From Candidatus Micrarchaeia archaeon (GTDB taxonomy: Archaea > Micrarchaeota > Micrarchaeia > Micrarchaeales > CABMGC01): DNA of 21,270 bases. A program made the translations under genes and the position numbers. The first letter of the stretch is position 1; each line of letters begins with the position of its first letter. Where the stretch lies: assembly GCA_049964835.1 (NCBI GenBank), contig JBMFWW010000012.1:1-21270 (forward strand). Direction: 5' to 3'. This document shows, piece after piece, positions 4,729-13,846 of the stretch. A model generated the notes under the pieces. That model did not search any database, had not been told where the DNA came from, and saw nothing but the letters and a program-made list of their open reading frames with translations.

Positions 4729-4934
4729 TTCATACACCTTTTTTATTAATTATAAAAATCCACGATATGATATTGACTATTTAATATATCAAAACCACAA
4801 TTATATATTACTTATAAAAATATTTAAAAGTTTCTTTGTAAACACTATATACACGCCTAACCTTCGTAGCTTACATATGTCATACTTATTGATAAGCTAT
4901 ATATATGAGAAAAAACCTATTTATATTGATTGTT

Positions 4935-6137
4935 ATGGAAATAGAAAAAAAGAGTGGGGAAAGAAATAGCAATTCAACTTTAAATATTATTAAAAAGCCT
5001 AAGACGCTTGTTACTGCAACTGTTATTGCAGCTTCATTAATGGGTGCATTAAGACCTTCTGAAAAACCTGCAGAGGCAAGAATAAATCCAATAGTTGGTG
5101 GTTTAATAATAGGAACACTGAATGGTCTTGAAGCCGGAGTAAATTATGATATAGCAAGAAATATAGGAGGCATTTATGAAGGATATGGATATGGCTACAC
5201 TCCTTATTGTGGAGGAATAGAAGGTTCGTATCCTGTTTATTCTAATTGTGCACCAGCGTATGTTTCTCCTTATAATGGATATAATTATGCACCTGCGTAT
5301 GTAAGTCCATATAATGGATATAATGATGCACCTGCATACGTAACACCATATAATGGATATAACAACGCACCGACATATATTTCACCTTATAGCACAGAGG
5401 GTTCTTATCCTGTTTATCAAAATTCAGCACCTGCGTATGTAACACCGTATAATAATACAGTAGGACCAACATCATATGCTGCACCACAGAGTACTGAGAC
5501 GTATGTAGCTCCAACTAATTACACAAATACAAATATGCAACAAGGATATACTGCTACATTATTTCCAAAGCCAAAGGTAGTTATGACTTGGCCTGAAAAG
5601 CGTGCTCTTGAATTGCAATATGCTATGAGAAACAACGCAATACAAAAACAGCAAGCACAACAAATAGTAAACCCTACGCAAATAGAAAACAATAATAACA
5701 ACATACAAGTAGTATCATTAAAGGTTCAGACTCCTAACGTAAAGAGTAGCAATGGAAAGTATATGGAAGTTAATGAAAGTATATCAAAGCAGGAAAGTCC
5801 AGCAAACTCAACGACTGTTAAAAAATATGTTTACAGATATGAAGATAAAAATGGGGAAGAGGTTACAAAGACACAGACCGTAACAAAAAAAGTAAGAACA
5901 TATGTAATTGAGCCTGCGTCGTATGAAAAACCTTCCGATTCTAATGCAGCTTCAGCAGTTTCAGGAAATATAGCATATGGCAATTTAATGAATAACAATG
6001 TTGTTGCCCAAGAAGTTGATAACTTAAGTTACATGCCAAAGAATCTTAATGGTGTTGTTGTAGATGCCGCAGTATTTTTAGGAATTGGAGGAGGAATTTT
6101 TGCTGGATTAACATTATTAAAACGTAAATCAGCATAA
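4935..6137 (+). CDS. Hypothetical cell-surface protein with signal peptide, Tyr/Pro/Asn-rich repeats and a C-terminal TM anchor
   Basis: Basic N-region, hydrophobic stretch and an AEA-like cleavage site; APAYV(S/T)PYNGYN repeats; C-terminal hydrophobic helix followed by KRK. The ORF track starts at 4905; ATG 4935 fits better with the TATA-like run at about 4898-4905. Confidence 0.8.
   Translation: MEIEKKSGERNSNSTLNIIKKPKTLVTATVIAASLMGALRPSEKPAEARINPIVGGLIIGTLNGLEAGVNYDIARNIGGIYEGYGYGYTPYCGGIEGSYPVYSNCAPAYVSPYNGYNYAPAYVSPYNGYNDAPAYVTPYNGYNNAPTYISPYSTEGSYPVYQNSAPAYVTPYNNTVGPTSYAAPQSTETYVAPTNYTNTNMQQGYTATLFPKPKVVMTWPEKRALELQYAMRNNAIQKQQAQQIVNPTQIENNNNNIQVVSLKVQTPNVKSSNGKYMEVNESISKQESPANSTTVKKYVYRYEDKNGEEVTKTQTVTKKVRTYVIEPASYEKPSDSNAASAVSGNIAYGNLMNNNVVAQEVDNLSYMPKNLNGVVVDAAVFLGIGGGIFAGLTLLKRKSA
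5220..5453 (+). repeat. Intragenic 39-bp (13-aa) tandem repeat nested within a larger duplication
   Basis: Units start at 5250, 5289, 5328 and 5367 (partial), with another copy at 5427. EGSYPVY is encoded at both 5220-5240 and 5397-5417. Confidence 0.9.
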
Positions 6138-6193: not shown

Positions 6194-6526
6194 ATGGTTT
6201 TTATGCCAAAATCTAAACCGACAAAAAATGTAGCTAAAATAGTTAAGATTAATCCACAGATAAAAATACAGAACATTGTGGTGAGCGCAGACCTTCATGC
6301 AAATATAGATTTATTCTCTTTGACCAAAGATGTCAAAGAGGTATCATATGAGCCTGAGCAGTTCCCAGGTGCAATATTTAGAATGAAGGAGCCGAAGGCA
6401 GTAATTATATTATTCAAAAACGGCAAACTTATATGTACGGGATCTAATAATACAAAGAACATAAAAGAAGTTCTAGAAAGAGCAGCAAAGATAATATCCG
6501 AGTACGTTATTGAGGGTACGAGTTAG
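6194..6526 (+). CDS. tbp: TATA-box-binding protein homologue with a single TBP repeat
   Basis: IKIQNIVVSADL...IDL, YEPEQFPGAIFRMKEPKAVIILFKNGKLICTG. Only 110 aa, ending after one repeat; its 3' end overlaps the convergent GT4 gene by 20 nt. Confidence 0.88.
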   Translation: MVFMPKSKPTKNVAKIVKINPQIKIQNIVVSADLHANIDLFSLTKDVKEVSYEPEQFPGAIFRMKEPKAVIILFKNGKLICTGSNNTKNIKEVLERAAKIISEYVIEGTS

Positions 6527-7661
6527 TATCTTTCTTTGTTTTTTCCAATAATATATCAAAGTTTTTGAAAAAGTTATTCCACGAATATCTTTTAATTACG
6601 CGGTTTCTGCCATTTTTACCTAACTCTTCAGCTAAAGCTGGATTCTGTACTATTTCGAGCATTCTTTTTGCCATTTCTTCTTCTGAGTTTACAAGAAAAC
6701 CGTCTTTATTGTTTCTTATAGTTTCTTTAGGGCCACCTTCATTTATTGATATGACTGGTTTTGAACTTGCCATTCCTTCGAGAGGGACAAGGCCATAATC
6801 CTCGTTCTTAGAAGCAAAGAGAACAGCAGTACAAGATGAATAAAGAGATCTGAGTCTTTCCTCGCTTGCATTTGTAATGAATTTTACATTTAAGTTGTTT
6901 GATAATGATTTTAATCTTTTTAAGTACTCTTTATGTTCGGGGTCATTAGAAAGAGTTCCTGCAAGAACAAGAGAGTATTTTTTATCGTTTTTTATGAGTT
7001 TAGAAAATACTTTAAAGGCTCTTATTACATAATCTTGTTGCTTGTTTACAATTATCCTCGAAGGATACAGAAAGTATCTTTCATCTCCTTTATTGTTAAA
7101 TGCTTTGTAATCTATTCCAGGAGGTATTACAACCGCACTTCTTGAAAAGTAAGTTTCTATTCTTTTTCTTGTGTTTTCACTGTTTGTTGCTATGTTGTCT
7201 ATTTTTTTTATCGTCTTTGATGCTATAAACTTGTAAGTACCAACCATACTAGAATAAAGAAGCTTGTCCTTTATAGAACGACCCTGCATGCGTACTTTAT
7301 ATAAATCATAAACCTCTCTAGGCGGAGTATGGCAGTACCAAAGAATATTTTTATTTTTATGACTTACCCATTCACTAGGAGATATATGTGGATTTAAAAC
7401 GTCGTAATCCTCTTTTATTTTTAAATTATAAAAATTATAGCCATAACGCAAGCCTTGCGATGCTCTGTAAGGTAGTATGTTTGAAAACGGAACCTTTTTG
7501 CCTATTATTTTTATATCTACATCTTCAAATTCTGAATACGTTTTATTTTTTTCATACTCTAATGTGTATATTTGTGCAGTATAATGTTTTGCCACTTCTA
7601 AAATAACCTTTTCTGCTCCGCCTTTAATATTAAGATAAGGTTGTAAAATTATCAACTTCAT
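6507..7661 (-). CDS. Glycosyltransferase family 4 (GT-B, retaining)
   Basis: GGAEKV, YCHTP, NS..T, SRI...KQQ, EDYGLVPLEGMASSKPVI (Ex7E), GGPKE; directly downstream of aglB. Confidence 0.92.
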   Translation of the reverse strand: MKLIILQPYLNIKGGAEKVILEVAKHYTAQIYTLEYEKNKTYSEFEDVDIKIIGKKVPFSNILPYRASQGLRYGYNFYNLKIKEDYDVLNPHISPSEWVSHKNKNILWYCHTPPREVYDLYKVRMQGRSIKDKLLYSSMVGTYKFIASKTIKKIDNIATNSENTRKRIETYFSRSAVVIPPGIDYKAFNNKGDERYFLYPSRIIVNKQQDYVIRAFKVFSKLIKNDKKYSLVLAGTLSNDPEHKEYLKRLKSLSNNLNVKFITNASEERLRSLYSSCTAVLFASKNEDYGLVPLEGMASSKPVISINEGGPKETIRNNKDGFLVNSEEEMAKRMLEIVQNPALAEELGKNGRNRVIKRYSWNNFFKNFDILLEKTKKDTNSYPQ

Positions 7662-7712: not shown

Positions 7713-10700
7713 TTAGCCTGGAACGCTGAAGTTGTTTGTTATATAGCTTGGCTTTTGTATGTATGGCGGAACTCCATCAGAGTAATTATTTAGTTTGTAT
7801 ATTATGACATCATTTGTTGAATTGATTAGATTAATTCCTGAAAAGCCATTTACCGGATAAACCATTGTAAATCCAGGCAGATGACCAAGGAAGAATCCTC
7901 TGTAGTAATTTGAGCTGTAGAAAAGTGATGGAGCGTCGGTAACTGTATAGTTTGGTCCATTAGGTAGATATATTGCCATAGCGCTGAAGAAGGTTCCTGC
8001 ACTACCATAATTAACATAACCATTAACCAAATCAGTATTGTTTAAATCTATTATTATATTAGTACGAGTTCCGTTAACTGTATACAAAGGAAGTACCCCA
8101 TTGGAACTGCCAGTAGTAGGTACACAGTAACTCTGATTTATTGCTTGTGGCACAGTTTGTCCTACAGTCAATAACACCTGAACCGCTTGTATTGAACTAT
8201 TCTTAAAGTTGCAGTAATCGCTTACAGTTGGATTTGAAGGAATATTTACTTCTATAGGATCATGAGAAATTTCACATTGAGATGTTCCAGTGAGGAATGT
8301 TGATAGACCATACTTTGAACCTTGTGCTACTGCATAAGCTTTGCTTGTTTCATTAGCATAAACACATCCTAAGAAATCAAGCGCACCCCATTTTGGAACT
8401 AGTTGGTCATCAAATAACACATATCCAGTTTGAGTAGTCTGCATTAGCTGAGCTAATTTTACAGGACCATACGAGTCATTAGGACTAAGGATATAATTTG
8501 CAGCTACGCGATAATCAAATGATGCTACCGAGTTATCTCCTCTTATTACTGCGTTGCTGTTTCCGAACCAATTGATCCAATCACCATAGTCCCACCATGA
8601 AAGTATTCTTGGACCGCGTGGACCTACATTTGATGCTGCCCATGCCATAGCCGAAAGCCATTGTTGAGGAACAGAGTTACAGAATAGGTTTGCGCCCATT
8701 ACATTGTTTGAATTGAAGATCTGCGTACATGTGCTTCCTAAAGCGGCCATTATCTGAAATACTGCGCTTGACTCTGAAATTAGAGCTATTATCAATATTA
8801 AATAAAGCATATAATATAGCTTGTTTCTGCTGTAATAGCGATTAATTAGGTATGCTACCAAAACTCCTATCACTACACTTACTATTGCACCTATTACCAA
8901 TGTTATTGAAGCTATTATTGATGCTAATGCAAATATCAAAAAGAGAGTTTCCATTATAAATATTAAACTGTTTAAGTTAGTTGTTTTGTTCTTGTTTTCA
9001 TTTAGGTATATAAATAATGTTCCAAGTATTACGCCTATTGCAAGAATATACGCAACTCCAAAGTGTGGTAAATACTTCACCTCGCTTAATCCTGCAACTG
9101 CAAGTACAGCAACTATTGCTATTGCAAGCATTGCAGATTTTGAGTTTGTAGCAAAAACAGAATATATTTCTATTATTGCAAATATTATTAAAATAATGAA
9201 TAGGAACATAGGAAATCCTAATATTGAAGCACCTATAGAACCAAATCCATTAGAACCAAAATTAAATGTAAGACCAGTTGGAGCATACTCTTGAACTGTC
9301 ATGAATAAAGGCGATGATGGAGTTGTAAACTTTTGGCTTAATTGTAAATAATCAATAACTGGTTTGCCTAAAGGCGTGAATACTATCAAAAGAATTACTA
9401 TTATTATTAACAAGATAAGCCATTCGAGATAAAGCATTCTTCCAGTGTTTTTAATGTACTTTTTCTCTTTAGCAAACTTTGGCAGATAATCATAAAGAAA
9501 TACAATTACGAGTGCAAATAGAGGGAATGCGACTATTGTTGGTATTCCTAAAAGAGAAGGTATTCTATTTGTTAATGATGCACCATAAGGAGCGTATATT
9601 ATGTAAAATAATGTTATAACAGCAATTACAACAATATTCATTTTATAGAAATCTATTGTTATCTTTCCTTTGAATACATCTATTATTCCCTGTGCAACTA
9701 TGTAAAATGCTAGAATTCCTGCATCTACTGTGTAGTAGTGTGCTCCAAGGAATGTTGATGCAAATGCTATTCCTGCAAGTATCGCATATCTTTTCTGTTC
9801 AGGGTACTTTACTGCAAGAAGATATGTTGCAAAGAAGAAGAATAATGTAAAGATTCCCCATGGTTCTAAAAGCTGTTCTCCAGCTATAAAAGTTGAGATA
9901 AGTGTTGGCATTAAAAAGGTTAAACCGGCAGCAAATAATGCAGGGATATCTCCATACTCAGTATATATAAATAAGAATATTACAAATACAAGAAGCGCCG
10001 CAACAATTGGTGGATAGAAACTGCTTACATCACTTAGAAGTGTGTTATTTAGTTTTTGTGTATTTGTTGTGGCTAGCTCATACCAATACGCTTCTAGATA
10101 AGGAACTAATGGTTGTATTCTATGTACAGTTCCATTAACTAATGTAGGCCACGCAGCATGCTCATACAAAGGTTGGTAACCATAAGTAAGTATATATTGA
10201 GTGCTTACCATATCGAAATATGGGTCGAACTCAAAAAACTTAGGCGCAACACCTATGTTTGAGATTCTAGTTGCAAAGGTAGCTAGTATTATTAAGAATA
10301 ATAATGACCATATAATTAAACTTCGTTTATTGCTTAAAAATGAGGTACTTTTATTGACTTGAATATTATTAGAATACGAGAGAAGATCCTTTTCTTCATT
10401 TTCATGCTGTCTGTAAAGACGCTTTTCTTGCTCCGTGTGTGATTCGGTTACAATTTCTAACTCTTCTGAACCTGCTCCTTTTTCTTTTAGTAATCTAATT
10501 TCTTCTTTGTGTTTTGATTCTAGTTCTCTTTCTTCCTGTTCATGTATCTTTACTACTGACAAATCTATATTTAATGATTTTAACTTTTCCCTTATCTCTT
10601 CGACTCTTGCCTTGTGATCAGAACTTGTTATTTGAACTGTACTTGTACTTTTCTTGCTTTTTGAAATGAAGTTGAAACTTAAATCCTCCTTTGTTATTGC

Positions 10701-10967
10701 ACCTTGCCATATGCAAAGAAGTATTCCTAAAATTGTCAAAAAAATAACATTTGCACCATATAAAGCTGATGAAAAAGAAAATGCGCTGCTTACAGGTATT
10801 AAATACGATTCACCCCAAACAAATGCCGGAGGGAATATCAAACCAAAGATGAATCCCATCATAGTTATTTGAAAAAGGCCCATCTTTGTTTTTCTAAGTA
10901 GTGCAAGGGACAGGAAAAATCCTGGCACTAGAATAGAGAGAAAACCTATTATAATTGCAGTAATCAT
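7713..10967 (-). CDS. aglB: Oligosaccharyltransferase AglB (STT3 family) with an N-terminal extension
   Basis: EFDPY, many TM helices, TVQE (TIXE-like), WWDYG, GDN, DDQLVPK (DK motif). Confidence 0.95.
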   Translation of the reverse strand: MITAIIIGFLSILVPGFFLSLALLRKTKMGLFQITMMGFIFGLIFPPAFVWGESYLIPVSSAFSFSSALYGANVIFLTILGILLCIWQGAITKEDLSFNFISKSKKSTSTVQITSSDHKARVEEIREKLKSLNIDLSVVKIHEQEERELESKHKEEIRLLKEKGAGSEELEIVTESHTEQEKRLYRQHENEEKDLLSYSNNIQVNKSTSFLSNKRSLIIWSLLFLIILATFATRISNIGVAPKFFEFDPYFDMVSTQYILTYGYQPLYEHAAWPTLVNGTVHRIQPLVPYLEAYWYELATTNTQKLNNTLLSDVSSFYPPIVAALLVFVIFLFIYTEYGDIPALFAAGLTFLMPTLISTFIAGEQLLEPWGIFTLFFFFATYLLAVKYPEQKRYAILAGIAFASTFLGAHYYTVDAGILAFYIVAQGIIDVFKGKITIDFYKMNIVVIAVITLFYIIYAPYGASLTNRIPSLLGIPTIVAFPLFALVIVFLYDYLPKFAKEKKYIKNTGRMLYLEWLILLIIIVILLIVFTPLGKPVIDYLQLSQKFTTPSSPLFMTVQEYAPTGLTFNFGSNGFGSIGASILGFPMFLFIILIIFAIIEIYSVFATNSKSAMLAIAIVAVLAVAGLSEVKYLPHFGVAYILAIGVILGTLFIYLNENKNKTTNLNSLIFIMETLFLIFALASIIASITLVIGAIVSVVIGVLVAYLINRYYSRNKLYYMLYLILIIALISESSAVFQIMAALGSTCTQIFNSNNVMGANLFCNSVPQQWLSAMAWAASNVGPRGPRILSWWDYGDWINWFGNSNAVIRGDNSVASFDYRVAANYILSPNDSYGPVKLAQLMQTTQTGYVLFDDQLVPKWGALDFLGCVYANETSKAYAVAQGSKYGLSTFLTGTSQCEISHDPIEVNIPSNPTVSDYCNFKNSSIQAVQVLLTVGQTVPQAINQSYCVPTTGSSNGVLPLYTVNGTRTNIIIDLNNTDLVNGYVNYGSAGTFFSAMAIYLPNGPNYTVTDAPSLFYSSNYYRGFFLGHLPGFTMVYPVNGFSGINLINSTNDVIIYKLNNYSDGVPPYIQKPSYITNNFSVPG

Positions 10968-12541: not shown

Positions 12542-13846
12542 ATGGATTTAGGAGAAGGACTCAGGAAAGCTATAGCTAAACTTCAAGGCTCTACAATAAT
12601 AGATTTAAAAACCATTCGTGAGTTTAACAAGGAACTTCAGAGAGCATTAATAAGTGCAGATGTAGAGCTTAAGTTAGTTTCTGAACTTACAAAAAAAATA
12701 GAAAACGCAGCGGTTAAGGAAAAAATGCCTGACGGAGTTAGTCCTAAAGATTACATAACTAATATGGTTTACGAAGAGTTAGTTAAGTTAATGGGTAAGA
12801 GCTATGAAGCTGAGATAAAACCAAAAAGAATACTTATGTTAGGTATGTATGGTGCTGGAAAGACCACAACATCAGGGAAATTAGCTAAATTTTATCAAGA
12901 TAGAGGACTTAGCGTCGGACTTATATGTTGTGATGTCGCAAGACCTGCAGCTTATGAACAGTTAGAAACTCTTGCAAAGCAGGTAAATGTTTCTTTCTTC
13001 GGTATAAAAAACGAAAAGAATGTACGCAAGATAATCTCAGAAGGCATGAAAGTGTTAAAAGATAGAAAGGTAGTAATCTGCGATTCAAGTGGGAGAAGTG
13101 CTTTGGACGAAGTTTTAATAAAAGAAATAAAGGAGATATCGGACGAATTTAAACCTAATGAAAAATTTCTAGTTATAAGCGCAGATATAGGACAGGTAGC
13201 TGGTAAACAAGCTTATGAATTTAACAACGCAATAGGCCTTACTGGAGTAATAGTTACAAAAATGGATGGCTCTGGAAGAGGAGGAGGAGCATTGAGCGCT
13301 GTTAACGCAGCTAAGGCAAATATAACATTTATAGGAGTAGGAGAAAAGATGAACTCCTTAGAGCAGTACAACTCTGAAAAGTTTGTTGGTAGGCTTTTAG
13401 GCGTACCGGACATAGAGTCATTGATAAAAAATGTCAATGAAGCAATTAAAGAAGCTAATGTGAAACCAGAGGAAATGAATCCTGAAGAGCTAAACTTCAA
13501 TACATTTTATACACAGTTGAAGACTATGTCAAAGATGGGACCTATGAAAAATATGCTTGGTATGATGGGCGTTAGCGATCTTCCAAAGAATGTAGTAGAA
13601 CAAGGAGAGGAAAAGCTCGCCAGATATAAAGTAATAATAGGATCAATGACAAATGAGGAACGAAACAACGATAAATTACTAAAAGATCATGGAAGAATAA
13701 CGAGGATTGCAAAGGGAAGTGGAACTCAAGAAAAAGATGTTAGAATGTTAATAAGCGAGTTCAACAAGATGAAAAAATTCTATGAGATGTTCAAAAACGA
13801 CAGGAATGTTAAGAAAAATTTATCAAAGTTTATGAAAATGGGATAA
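12542..13846 (+). CDS. srp54: Signal recognition particle protein SRP54
   Basis: N domain (LQRALISADV), G1 GMYGAGKTT, RPAAYEQL, DSSGR, TKMDGSGRGGGALS, M domain (KMGP, SMT.EER, RI.RIA.GSG). Confidence 0.97.
   Translation: MDLGEGLRKAIAKLQGSTIIDLKTIREFNKELQRALISADVELKLVSELTKKIENAAVKEKMPDGVSPKDYITNMVYEELVKLMGKSYEAEIKPKRILMLGMYGAGKTTTSGKLAKFYQDRGLSVGLICCDVARPAAYEQLETLAKQVNVSFFGIKNEKNVRKIISEGMKVLKDRKVVICDSSGRSALDEVLIKEIKEISDEFKPNEKFLVISADIGQVAGKQAYEFNNAIGLTGVIVTKMDGSGRGGGALSAVNAAKANITFIGVGEKMNSLEQYNSEKFVGRLLGVPDIESLIKNVNEAIKEANVKPEEMNPEELNFNTFYTQLKTMSKMGPMKNMLGMMGVSDLPKNVVEQGEEKLARYKVIIGSMTNEERNNDKLLKDHGRITRIAKGSGTQEKDVRMLISEFNKMKKFYEMFKNDRNVKKNLSKFMKMG

Follow-up and report, generated by a model that had tools for sequence, protein, structure and literature searches.

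Can a TATA-binding protein (TBP) made of a single repeat take the place of the normal two-repeat protein, and with which partner would it then build the saddle that sits on the TATA box? This question is raised by a gene in a window of DNA from Candidatus Micrarchaeia archaeon (assembly GCA_049964835.1, contig JBMFWW010000012.1, positions 1–21,270, forward strand), the window being the whole stretch of 21,270 nucleotides (nt) that was analysed. The genome is coded G000 here and the gene, located on contig C12, is designated beta. TBP is the textbook pseudo-symmetric protein and is thought to descend from a homodimer of one-repeat chains, an ancestor that is so far hypothetical since, to our knowledge, the repeats are fused in all organisms studied. 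The explanation put forward here, with a probability of roughly 0.55, is that the product of beta is a subunit of a TBP saddle built from two chains, most likely together with the product of a second single-repeat gene, alpha, in which beta would take the role of the C-terminal (C) repeat.

The original prediction described a stand-alone open reading frame (ORF) of 110 amino acids (aa) with one TBP repeat at positions 6194..6526 of the forward strand. This ORF and its 110-aa translation were confirmed, and the gene can be read as follows:

6203..6526 (+): coding sequence of the single-repeat TBP beta, 107 aa from the ATG at 6203, with the stop codon TAG at 6524–6526

ATG at 6194 (+): alternative upstream start of beta, which would yield 110 aa

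6166–6173 (+): putative TATA box TTTAAAAA of the beta promoter, about 33 nt before ATG 6203

6203..6256 (+): basic N-terminal arm MPKSKPTKNVAKIVKINP, matching the inter-repeat linker of two-repeat TBPs

6257..6505 (+): single TBP repeat (PF00352), profile positions 1–85 of 85, about 92 bits

The protein gives one match to the Pfam family PF00352 (residues 22–104 of 110 aa, E 2.2e-26, 91.9 bits against a cut-off of 22.9), which covers the full profile. The two tandem repeats by which a canonical TBP is recognized are not found, as beta has one repeat and no adjacent repeat was detected in any frame. In the same way, 10 NCBIfam models of full-length TBP, including PRK00394, match one repeat only, with 71–89 bits against cut-offs of 181–347. 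Beta is 40–50% identical to either repeat of the solved archaeal TBPs (1mp9, 2z8u, 1pcz/1ais), with whole-sequence E values of 6e-37 to 4e-35 against 1mp9, 2z8u, 1pcz, 1ais and 1d3u, and the two repeats of 1mp9 score 65.8 and 62.1 bits against it, so that either repeat aligns equally well. The motifs pointed out by the original prediction (NIV, QFPG, ILF, CTG and YEPEQ) are all present and are invariant or nearly so among 57 aligned beta-type sequences, in which 31 columns show no variation at all. The invariant residues include N24, F54, F71 and T79, whose columns are also conserved in outgroup repeats and which we take, from yeast and archaeal TBP structures, to be the DNA-contact positions (the Asn of strand S1, the two intercalating Phe of each repeat and the Thr of strand S5). 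They also include the acidic stirrup that starts at Y49 (Y-E-P-E-Q-F-P-G), whose role is presumably the binding of TFB/TFIIB.

The real start of beta is probably ATG 6203 (MPKSK...), giving 107 aa, because the TTTAAAAA box is too close to ATG 6194 and because M[A/P]KS is the N-terminus kept among the beta orthologues; TTG stands at the start-codon position in two of them (G006 and G009). The predicted basic N-terminal arm is present, on a protein that is probably 107 rather than 110 aa long. Its residues 11–21 align with residues 88–98 of the 1pcz chain, and P18 is invariant in the 57 beta sequences. The box TTTAAAAA, or TTTATAAA in its place, recurs at an equal upstream distance in most of the 18 orthologous beta loci displayed, and its position about 33 nt before ATG 6203 implies that the beta mRNA would be leaderless or carry a very short leader.

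What other TBPs does this genome contain? The assembly of G000 comprises 805,809 bp in 46 contigs, with 32% G+C, 3,569 N and a completeness of 94.4%; like it, all genomes used here are metagenome assemblies and most are drafts. PF00352 has exactly two matches in G000, one in beta and one on contig C13 (12865–13107, minus strand), each in its own frame of 121–129 aa. A second search, in which a profile made from single-repeat homologues was run by filter-free hmmsearch against 10,525 six-frame ORFs of at least 30 aa, returned the same two repeats (E 5e-57 and 1e-37) and nothing further below E 0.8. No second repeat was thus found by this search on the contig of beta, in agreement with the prediction that none follows the gene, and neither search revealed a two-repeat TBP in this 94.4%-complete genome. 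A single TFB gene was found, on contig C23; its frame of 355 aa contains two cyclin repeats. The second TBP gene can be described as follows:

G000:C13, about 12841–13161 (−): single-repeat TBP gene alpha, the second PF00352 match

Alpha is 44% identical to beta over 104 aa. Its neighbours are L21e, Rpo4/F-like, DUF655-like and KsgA-like genes, named by eye rather than by family search, and the same neighbourhood surrounds the sole single-repeat TBP of G045 (family f8) and the fused, two-repeat TBP of G042 (family f5). Alpha thus occupies the canonical TBP locus and appears to be positionally orthologous to the main TBP; beta appears to be a dispersed extra copy. It had been proposed that beta is an accessory to a normal TBP, acting as an alternative factor, a repressor or a TFB decoy; this is not borne out, since G000 yielded no two-repeat TBP and has alpha at the canonical locus. 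For the same two reasons, beta can be considered part of the basic TBP equipment of its lineage.

A half-size gene in a draft of 46 contigs with 3,569 N could in principle come from the recent truncation or mis-assembly of a two-repeat TBP, or be a pseudogene. Apart from this draft state no support was found for such an origin, which is hardly credible in view of the data from related genomes. These data involve the neighbour of beta:

6507..7661 (−): GT4 glycosyltransferase gene, convergent to beta (Pfam Glycos_transf_1, E 4e-33)

As predicted, beta ends inside this gene, the overlap being 20 nt. The convergent pair, by which the orthologous locus can be recognized, occurs in 7 of the 7 genomes checked, all from families f1 and f3; the same one-repeat gene, the same stop position and the same convergent neighbour in these genomes of two families refute an artefact or a decaying gene. 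In a scan of species representatives, 55 beta loci were recovered at 63–97% identity, and all 55 are one-domain frames with a beta-type score; the 25 loci that follow have at most 54% identity, and 19 of them are two-domain TBPs, mostly labelled Iainarchaeum or Diapherotrites. The original prediction of a stand-alone, non-truncated gene is thereby upheld. In addition, the single-contig genomes G032 and G039 carry alpha and beta 210–760 kb apart and contain no two-repeat gene.

The gene also evolves as a functional one. Between G000 and G002, the proportion of non-synonymous differences (pN) in beta is 0.072 and that of synonymous differences (pS) 0.758, a pN far below pS that speaks against a pseudogene. 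Of 210 beta pairs, 40 have a dS in the range 0.05–2, and among these the ratio of non-synonymous to synonymous rates (dN/dS) has a median of 0.153 and a maximum of 0.362; for alpha, with 32 of 210 pairs usable, the median is 0.143. In most pairs dS is saturated, and dN is inflated because some codons of the set precede the start and are non-coding. Beta is under purifying selection, which settles a check that the original prediction had called for.

The names attached to homologues assign the lineage to the order Micrarchaeales of the class Micrarchaeia (Micrarchaeota). Beyond G000, the order was sampled with 41 genomes (G000 and 40 relatives) from three families and the whole class with 121 genomes of at least 80% completeness, the class counts being hand counts among the matches listed (35 further matches are unlisted); the tallies for the order and the class include G038, which is flagged unpublished and on which no other claim depends. 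Within the order, PF00352 has a match in 41 of 41 genomes. The 74 matches, two in each of 33 genomes and one in each of 8, are all lone repeats in frames of 100–274 aa, none of them adjacent, and no two-repeat TBP was detected in any of the 40 sampled relatives. Within the class, 118 of 121 genomes have a match. Exactly one repeat was counted, among the matches listed, in 56 of the 121 genomes, including G045, which is 98% complete, and the single-contig genomes G124 and G136. At least 21 genomes have both matches adjacent in one frame of 187–307 aa, that is, fused two-repeat TBPs; these are found in families f5, f10, f13, f14 and f16 and in one f7 genome, and two f19 genes were confirmed as two-domain proteins. 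Short proteins also prevail among the best 120 homologues of 60–193 aa, 114 having at most 150 aa and six 183–189 aa.

A profile made from beta homologues separates the beta-type genes (141–202 bits) from all other Micrarchaeial repeats (50–135 bits). With 189.8 bits on this profile, against a family threshold of at least 140, and with its place in the beta clade and its GT4 synteny, the window protein belongs to beta. In the sample studied, beta was seen only in families f1 and f3 of one order, alpha being class-wide, and no genome has beta alone: all 21 beta genes of the set come from genomes that also carry alpha.

These counts bear directly on the opening question. Since 56 of the 121 genomes have one repeat in total, a single repeat must be able to form a working TBP, and we infer that a homodimer serves as TBP in those genomes. 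The original prediction, which proposed that beta homodimerizes, was right in that no saddle can form unless beta associates with a further repeat; as for the partner, an alpha-beta heterodimer is at least as likely. The heterodimer is favoured here because beta was never seen without alpha in the set, because two alignment columns recall the difference between the N-terminal (N) and C repeats of ordinary TBPs, and because a model of the complex is in line with this pairing.

Under this reading, the formation of the saddle can be pictured as follows. Alpha and beta would jointly replace the usual two-repeat TBP in G000. The central strand S1 of beta would pair in antiparallel orientation with S1 of a second repeat, most likely that of alpha, whose gene on contig C13 occupies the canonical TBP locus. 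Helix H2 of beta and its N-terminal arm would pack against this partner. The two repeats would then form a ten-stranded DNA-binding saddle on the TATA box, which would present an acidic stirrup to the single TFB of the genome. In this complex, alpha would hold the N-repeat role and beta the C-repeat role, the asymmetry of the usual TBP having evolved again in trans.

The first of the two columns, column 10 in S1, corresponds to the residue preceding the DNA-contacting Asn. It is Q in 19 of 21 beta sequences, E in 20 of 26 alpha sequences and E in 21 of 21 sequences from families with a sole repeat. In two-repeat TBPs, the combination of E in the N repeat and Q in the C repeat occurs in 11 of the 41 proteins of the outgroup and in 5 of the 14 from Micrarchaeia, and the reverse combination in 1 of 41 and 0 of 14, respectively. 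Column 54 is V in 17 of 21 beta and A in 25 of 26 alpha sequences; in the outgroup, V is found in 25 of 41 C repeats and A in 21 of 41 N repeats. Beta also differs from alpha by a set of fixed substitutions (Q23, V27, H32, R60, V67, I68, I69 and L91). A C-minus-N score was calculated with profiles built from the outgroup N and C repeats, for which it averages −13.9 and +15.7 bits, respectively, values that are inflated as the scored rows are the training rows. The Micrarchaeial repeats are near neutral (+0.2 and −0.2 for alpha, +1.0 for fused N and +3.3 for fused C repeats). For beta the mean is +4.9 bits and the score is positive in 21 of 21 sequences, the window protein reaching +2.7.

In the complex prediction, alpha-beta scored 0.68, against 0.32 for the best control, and thereby passed a mark that 116 of 157 solved complexes and 2 of 215 mismatched pairs also reach; at least 74% of the contacts agree between runs and the predicted local distance difference test (pLDDT) of the partner is at least 80. 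The modelled interface consists of S1 on S1, antiparallel about residue 25, together with arm residues 14–21 and H2. For the monomer of beta, AlphaFold2 (57-row alignment) gave a mean pLDDT of 59.5, with residues 1–33 below 50, and the poorly modelled S1 does not argue for an obligate dimer.

Several observations weigh against alpha and beta being dedicated partners. The N/C-like signal amounts to two columns and about 5 bits. The complex model covers the alpha-beta pair only, cannot separate a heterodimer from a homodimer and shows likeness, not binding; as its geometry is that of the repeat-repeat joint inside a normal TBP, its pass may reflect a memory of solved TBPs. The 11 positions that tell alpha from beta show no tendency to lie in the modelled interface, which contains 4 of them and 29 of the 85 aligned positions overall. 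Both paralogues keep the YEPEQFPG stirrup, so that neither has given up its TFB site, as an obligate subunit in the N role might have done. Lastly, five f1 genomes that are 92–97% complete (G013, G124, G136, G020 and G021) manage with alpha and without beta. As alpha suffices there, it can presumably homodimerize, and beta is dispensable in these genomes, which would equally suit an accessory role. The GT4 neighbour was also not found, at E ≤1e-20, in four of them (G013, G124, G136 and G020); in G021 it is present (62% identity) and is directly followed by a convergent membrane-protein gene, with no beta.

The main rival, which is less likely, is the leading idea of the original prediction: beta forms a symmetric saddle with itself and acts as an alternative general TBP beside an alpha homodimer, the two sharing TFB and serving different promoters or conditions. 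The 56 one-repeat genomes imply that homodimeric saddles work in the class. None of the DNA-contact and stirrup motifs has been lost from beta, and both its promoter and its locus are conserved and its own. It also shows a long stem (0.42, support 100/94) followed by tight conservation, as expected after neofunctionalization; in addition, it was lost in some genera without visible change in alpha. As for the orientation-free factor that was also envisaged, the polarity of the archaeal pre-initiation complex is set by TFB and the B recognition element (BRE), so that a symmetric saddle would be tolerable. Against the beta homodimer, there is a single TFB for both forms, the E/Q and A/V pattern mirrors the N and C roles inside one saddle, and none of the 21 beta genes comes from a genome without alpha.

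That beta is dispensable in some genera, and that the halobacterial single-domain protein TbpA is reported, in the part of Brindefalk et al. 2013 (PMC3597702) considered here, to be non-essential, would also suit a regulator that caps alpha in an unproductive TATA-binding heterodimer or titrates TFB as a decoy or repressor. This is improbable, as the whole DNA-binding and stirrup surface of beta is invariant although a decoy would need just part of it, and as beta is conserved over two families between which dS is saturated. Moreover, an intact one-domain frame stands at all 55 species-representative loci, and the sequence gives no hint of any lost TBP function.

How did the half-size genes arise? 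A first tree was computed from 180 repeats over 85 columns, and a more careful one from 94 rows under LG+C20 with posterior mean site frequencies (PMSF), from which 25 near-duplicate loci, the locus L108 and all but 14 outgroup proteins were left out. In the careful tree, the 66 Micrarchaeial repeats (alpha, beta, fused N and fused C) fall into a single clan that is separate from the N and C repeats of the outgroup (support 100/96). In both trees, beta makes up one clade, with a support of 99 in the first and 100/94 in the second. The careful tree places it as sister to all other Micrarchaeial repeats (97/86), although 85 columns are too few to settle such deep branching. According to approximately unbiased (AU) tests, a clade uniting beta with the alpha of f1 and f3, that is, a duplication within the order, is not rejected (p-AU 0.337), and a grouping of beta with the outgroup C repeats, which costs 27.5 units of log-likelihood (lnL), is disfavoured without being rejected (p-AU 0.089). 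A grouping of the C repeats of fused Micrarchaeial TBPs with the outgroup C repeats, which was named after inspection of the tree, was rejected (p-AU 0.0016, lnL difference 73).

The two repeats of fused Micrarchaeial TBPs cluster by lineage, those of f13 with those of f14 (95/84) and those of f16 with those of f19 (94/89), and the fused repeats of the f7 genome G074 cluster with the single-repeat gene of G044 (100/92). Within the fused genes compared, namely L094 (G042), L097 (G052), L098 (G057) and L104 (G104), as well as L095, L106 and L107 from f5 and L099, L100 and L105 from f16, the N and C repeats have 48–78% identity and do not differ at all over a core of about 40 aa (EYEPEQFPGAI..LFKNGK.ICTG), with an identity at third codon positions of identical residues of up to 0.87. 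Judging from these alignments, the clustering by lineage and the likeness of the two repeats suggest that gene conversion has acted within the fused genes or that tandem duplications have occurred repeatedly and recently. If the two cores of a fused gene recombined, precisely one repeat would be lost, a simple way in which single-repeat genes could arise.

The single repeat could also be a relic that predates the TBP duplication. The tree is unable to root this question, and such an origin, which is highly improbable, would mean that the Micrarchaeia had no part in the origin of the two-repeat TBP found in eukaryotes and all other archaea. A stronger version of the two-chain saddle can also be drawn, in which an obligate alpha-beta heterodimer is the only TBP of the order, its N/C asymmetry having re-evolved in trans after ancestors with a symmetric homodimer, and in which the Micrarchaeia changed repeatedly from one-chain to two-chain saddles or back while gene conversion kept the repeats alike. 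This version is tentative and is given somewhat less than even odds.

Several other TBP genes came to light in the course of the survey. Some f8 genomes contain more than one half-size copy: G065 carries three dispersed single-repeat TBP genes on contig C1 (L075, L076 and L077), two of which are identical across 85 aligned columns, and G075 carries two separate ones on contig C62 (704–943 and 1973–2215), about 1 kb apart. The copy number of half-size TBPs thus varies within the class. A canonical-type two-repeat TBP, L108, lies on a 3.7-kb contig (C77) of the f1 genome G101, which also has alpha and beta; its two repeats fall among the N and C repeats of the outgroup, and it is probably a contamination of the bin. 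Five clear beta orthologues (L135, L136, L138, L139 and L149; 76–89% identity) come from records titled Actinomycetota bacterium, Saccharimonadales bacterium, Marsarchaeota archaeon or 'bacterium', and these bins are probably mislabelled. One-domain TBP frames of 95–132 aa were also found in records labelled Iainarchaeum or 'archaeon' (L194, L193, L195, L190 and L179); single-repeat TBPs may extend beyond the Micrarchaeia, or these labels may be loose. In the f17 genome G080, a 182-aa frame on contig C15 (L085) carries a single repeat at residues 91–182; the approximately 90 residues upstream, which do not match the profile, could be an N-terminal extension or merely a stop-free upstream stretch. 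Finally, four proteins (P0121, 376 aa; P0122, 272 aa; P0125, 702 aa; P0253, 329 aa) contain three or four stretches of TBP repeat per chain and could be fusions, tandem TBPs or gene-calling run-ons.

The surroundings of beta also include two genes without a Pfam match. Next to the GT4 gene, positions 7713–10967 of the window (minus strand) encode a multi-pass membrane protein of 1084 aa, with no Pfam match at E ≤0.001, that is conserved beside GT4 in f1 genomes. It contains the motif WWDYGDW, which we take to be a mark of the AglB/STT3 oligosaccharyltransferases. In f1 genomes, AglB and a thermosome gene are also found near beta. Upstream of beta, positions 4905–6137 (plus strand) hold an ORF of 410 aa with no Pfam match and a hydrophobic C-terminal tail. 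This ORF contains Tyr/Pro/Asn-rich and Asn/Gln-rich stretches and a 39-nt tandem repeat (3.1 copies, 5243–5362) encoding units like APAYV(S/T)PYNGYN. It is just 42% identical to its counterpart in G002 over 203 aa, compared with 72–95% for the neighbouring genes, and is likely a fast-evolving surface protein.

Taken together, the data on the order and the class indicate that a whole order and much of its class appear to run transcription on unfused TBP repeats, the genomes with one gene implying a homodimer and those with two diverged genes, such as G000, allowing a heterodimer. These natural proteins make it testable whether a symmetric saddle with two stirrups can direct initiation through TFB and BRE alone, what the N/C asymmetry adds, and how easily fusion and fission happen. 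If the obligate heterodimer and the repeated switching were true, the Micrarchaeia would be a living replay of the duplication and fusion that created TBP. There is also a consequence for annotation: single-repeat TBPs fall below the cut-offs of the full-length TBP models, and the NCBI-derived name of some members of this family is "hypothetical protein".

The TBP repeat family is known, and its use as the only TBP, as well as the alpha/beta pair, is not described in the literature searched. This search, which left supplements and subscription journals outside its scope, returned no description of single-repeat TBPs in Micrarchaeota or DPANN and none of an archaeon without a two-repeat TBP. 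In the part of PMC8407392 that was accessible, TBP is scored as conserved in about 88.8% of DPANN genomes, and nothing more is said of it there; the main text of PMC8975820 contains no TBP term.

Several known proteins can be compared with beta. The canonical archaeal two-repeat TBPs (1mp9, 2z8u, 1pcz/1ais/1d3u) have the same Asn, Phe and Thr DNA-contact positions and the same YEPEQFPG stirrup, and the predicted alpha-beta interface (S1 on S1, arm and H2) is the joint between the repeats of a normal TBP. Unlike these proteins of about 180 aa, beta has one repeat per chain and about 107 aa, and it is nearly undifferentiated between N and C (+2.7 bits), whereas the canonical repeats lie on average at −13.9 and +15.7 bits. 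Alpha resembles beta in its length, its architecture, its basic arm and the invariant core EYEPEQFPGAI...LFKNGK.ICTG, but alpha is class-wide and occupies the canonical TBP locus, whereas beta forms its own clade, lies beside GT4 and is absent from some genera.

Stand-alone ORFs of about 80–140 aa with a single TBP domain are described in the accessible part of Brindefalk et al. 2013 (PMC3597702) in Halobacteria (TbpA) and in Thermococcales, and are discussed there as evidence that the domain can work alone. Beta has in common with these monopartite proteins a single domain that stands alone. According to the same part of that paper, TbpA is similar to full-length TBP, the Thermococcales proteins are far diverged from TBP and form a separate cluster, and each monopartite protein is listed in Table 3 beside a full-length TBP of 174–192 aa from the same genome. 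By contrast, no full-length TBP was found beside beta in G000 or beside the single repeats of 40 of 40 relatives from the order, and beta, with its 40–50% identity to TBP repeats, is not far diverged, a contrast drawn without direct alignment to the Thermococcales proteins. The closest sequence relatives are the two-repeat TBPs of Micrarchaeial families f5, f10, f13, f14, f16 and f19, which belong to the same clan as beta (100/96) and differ from it by carrying their repeats on a single chain of 187–220 aa. The class thus appears to have both the one-chain and the two-chain forms of the same saddle.

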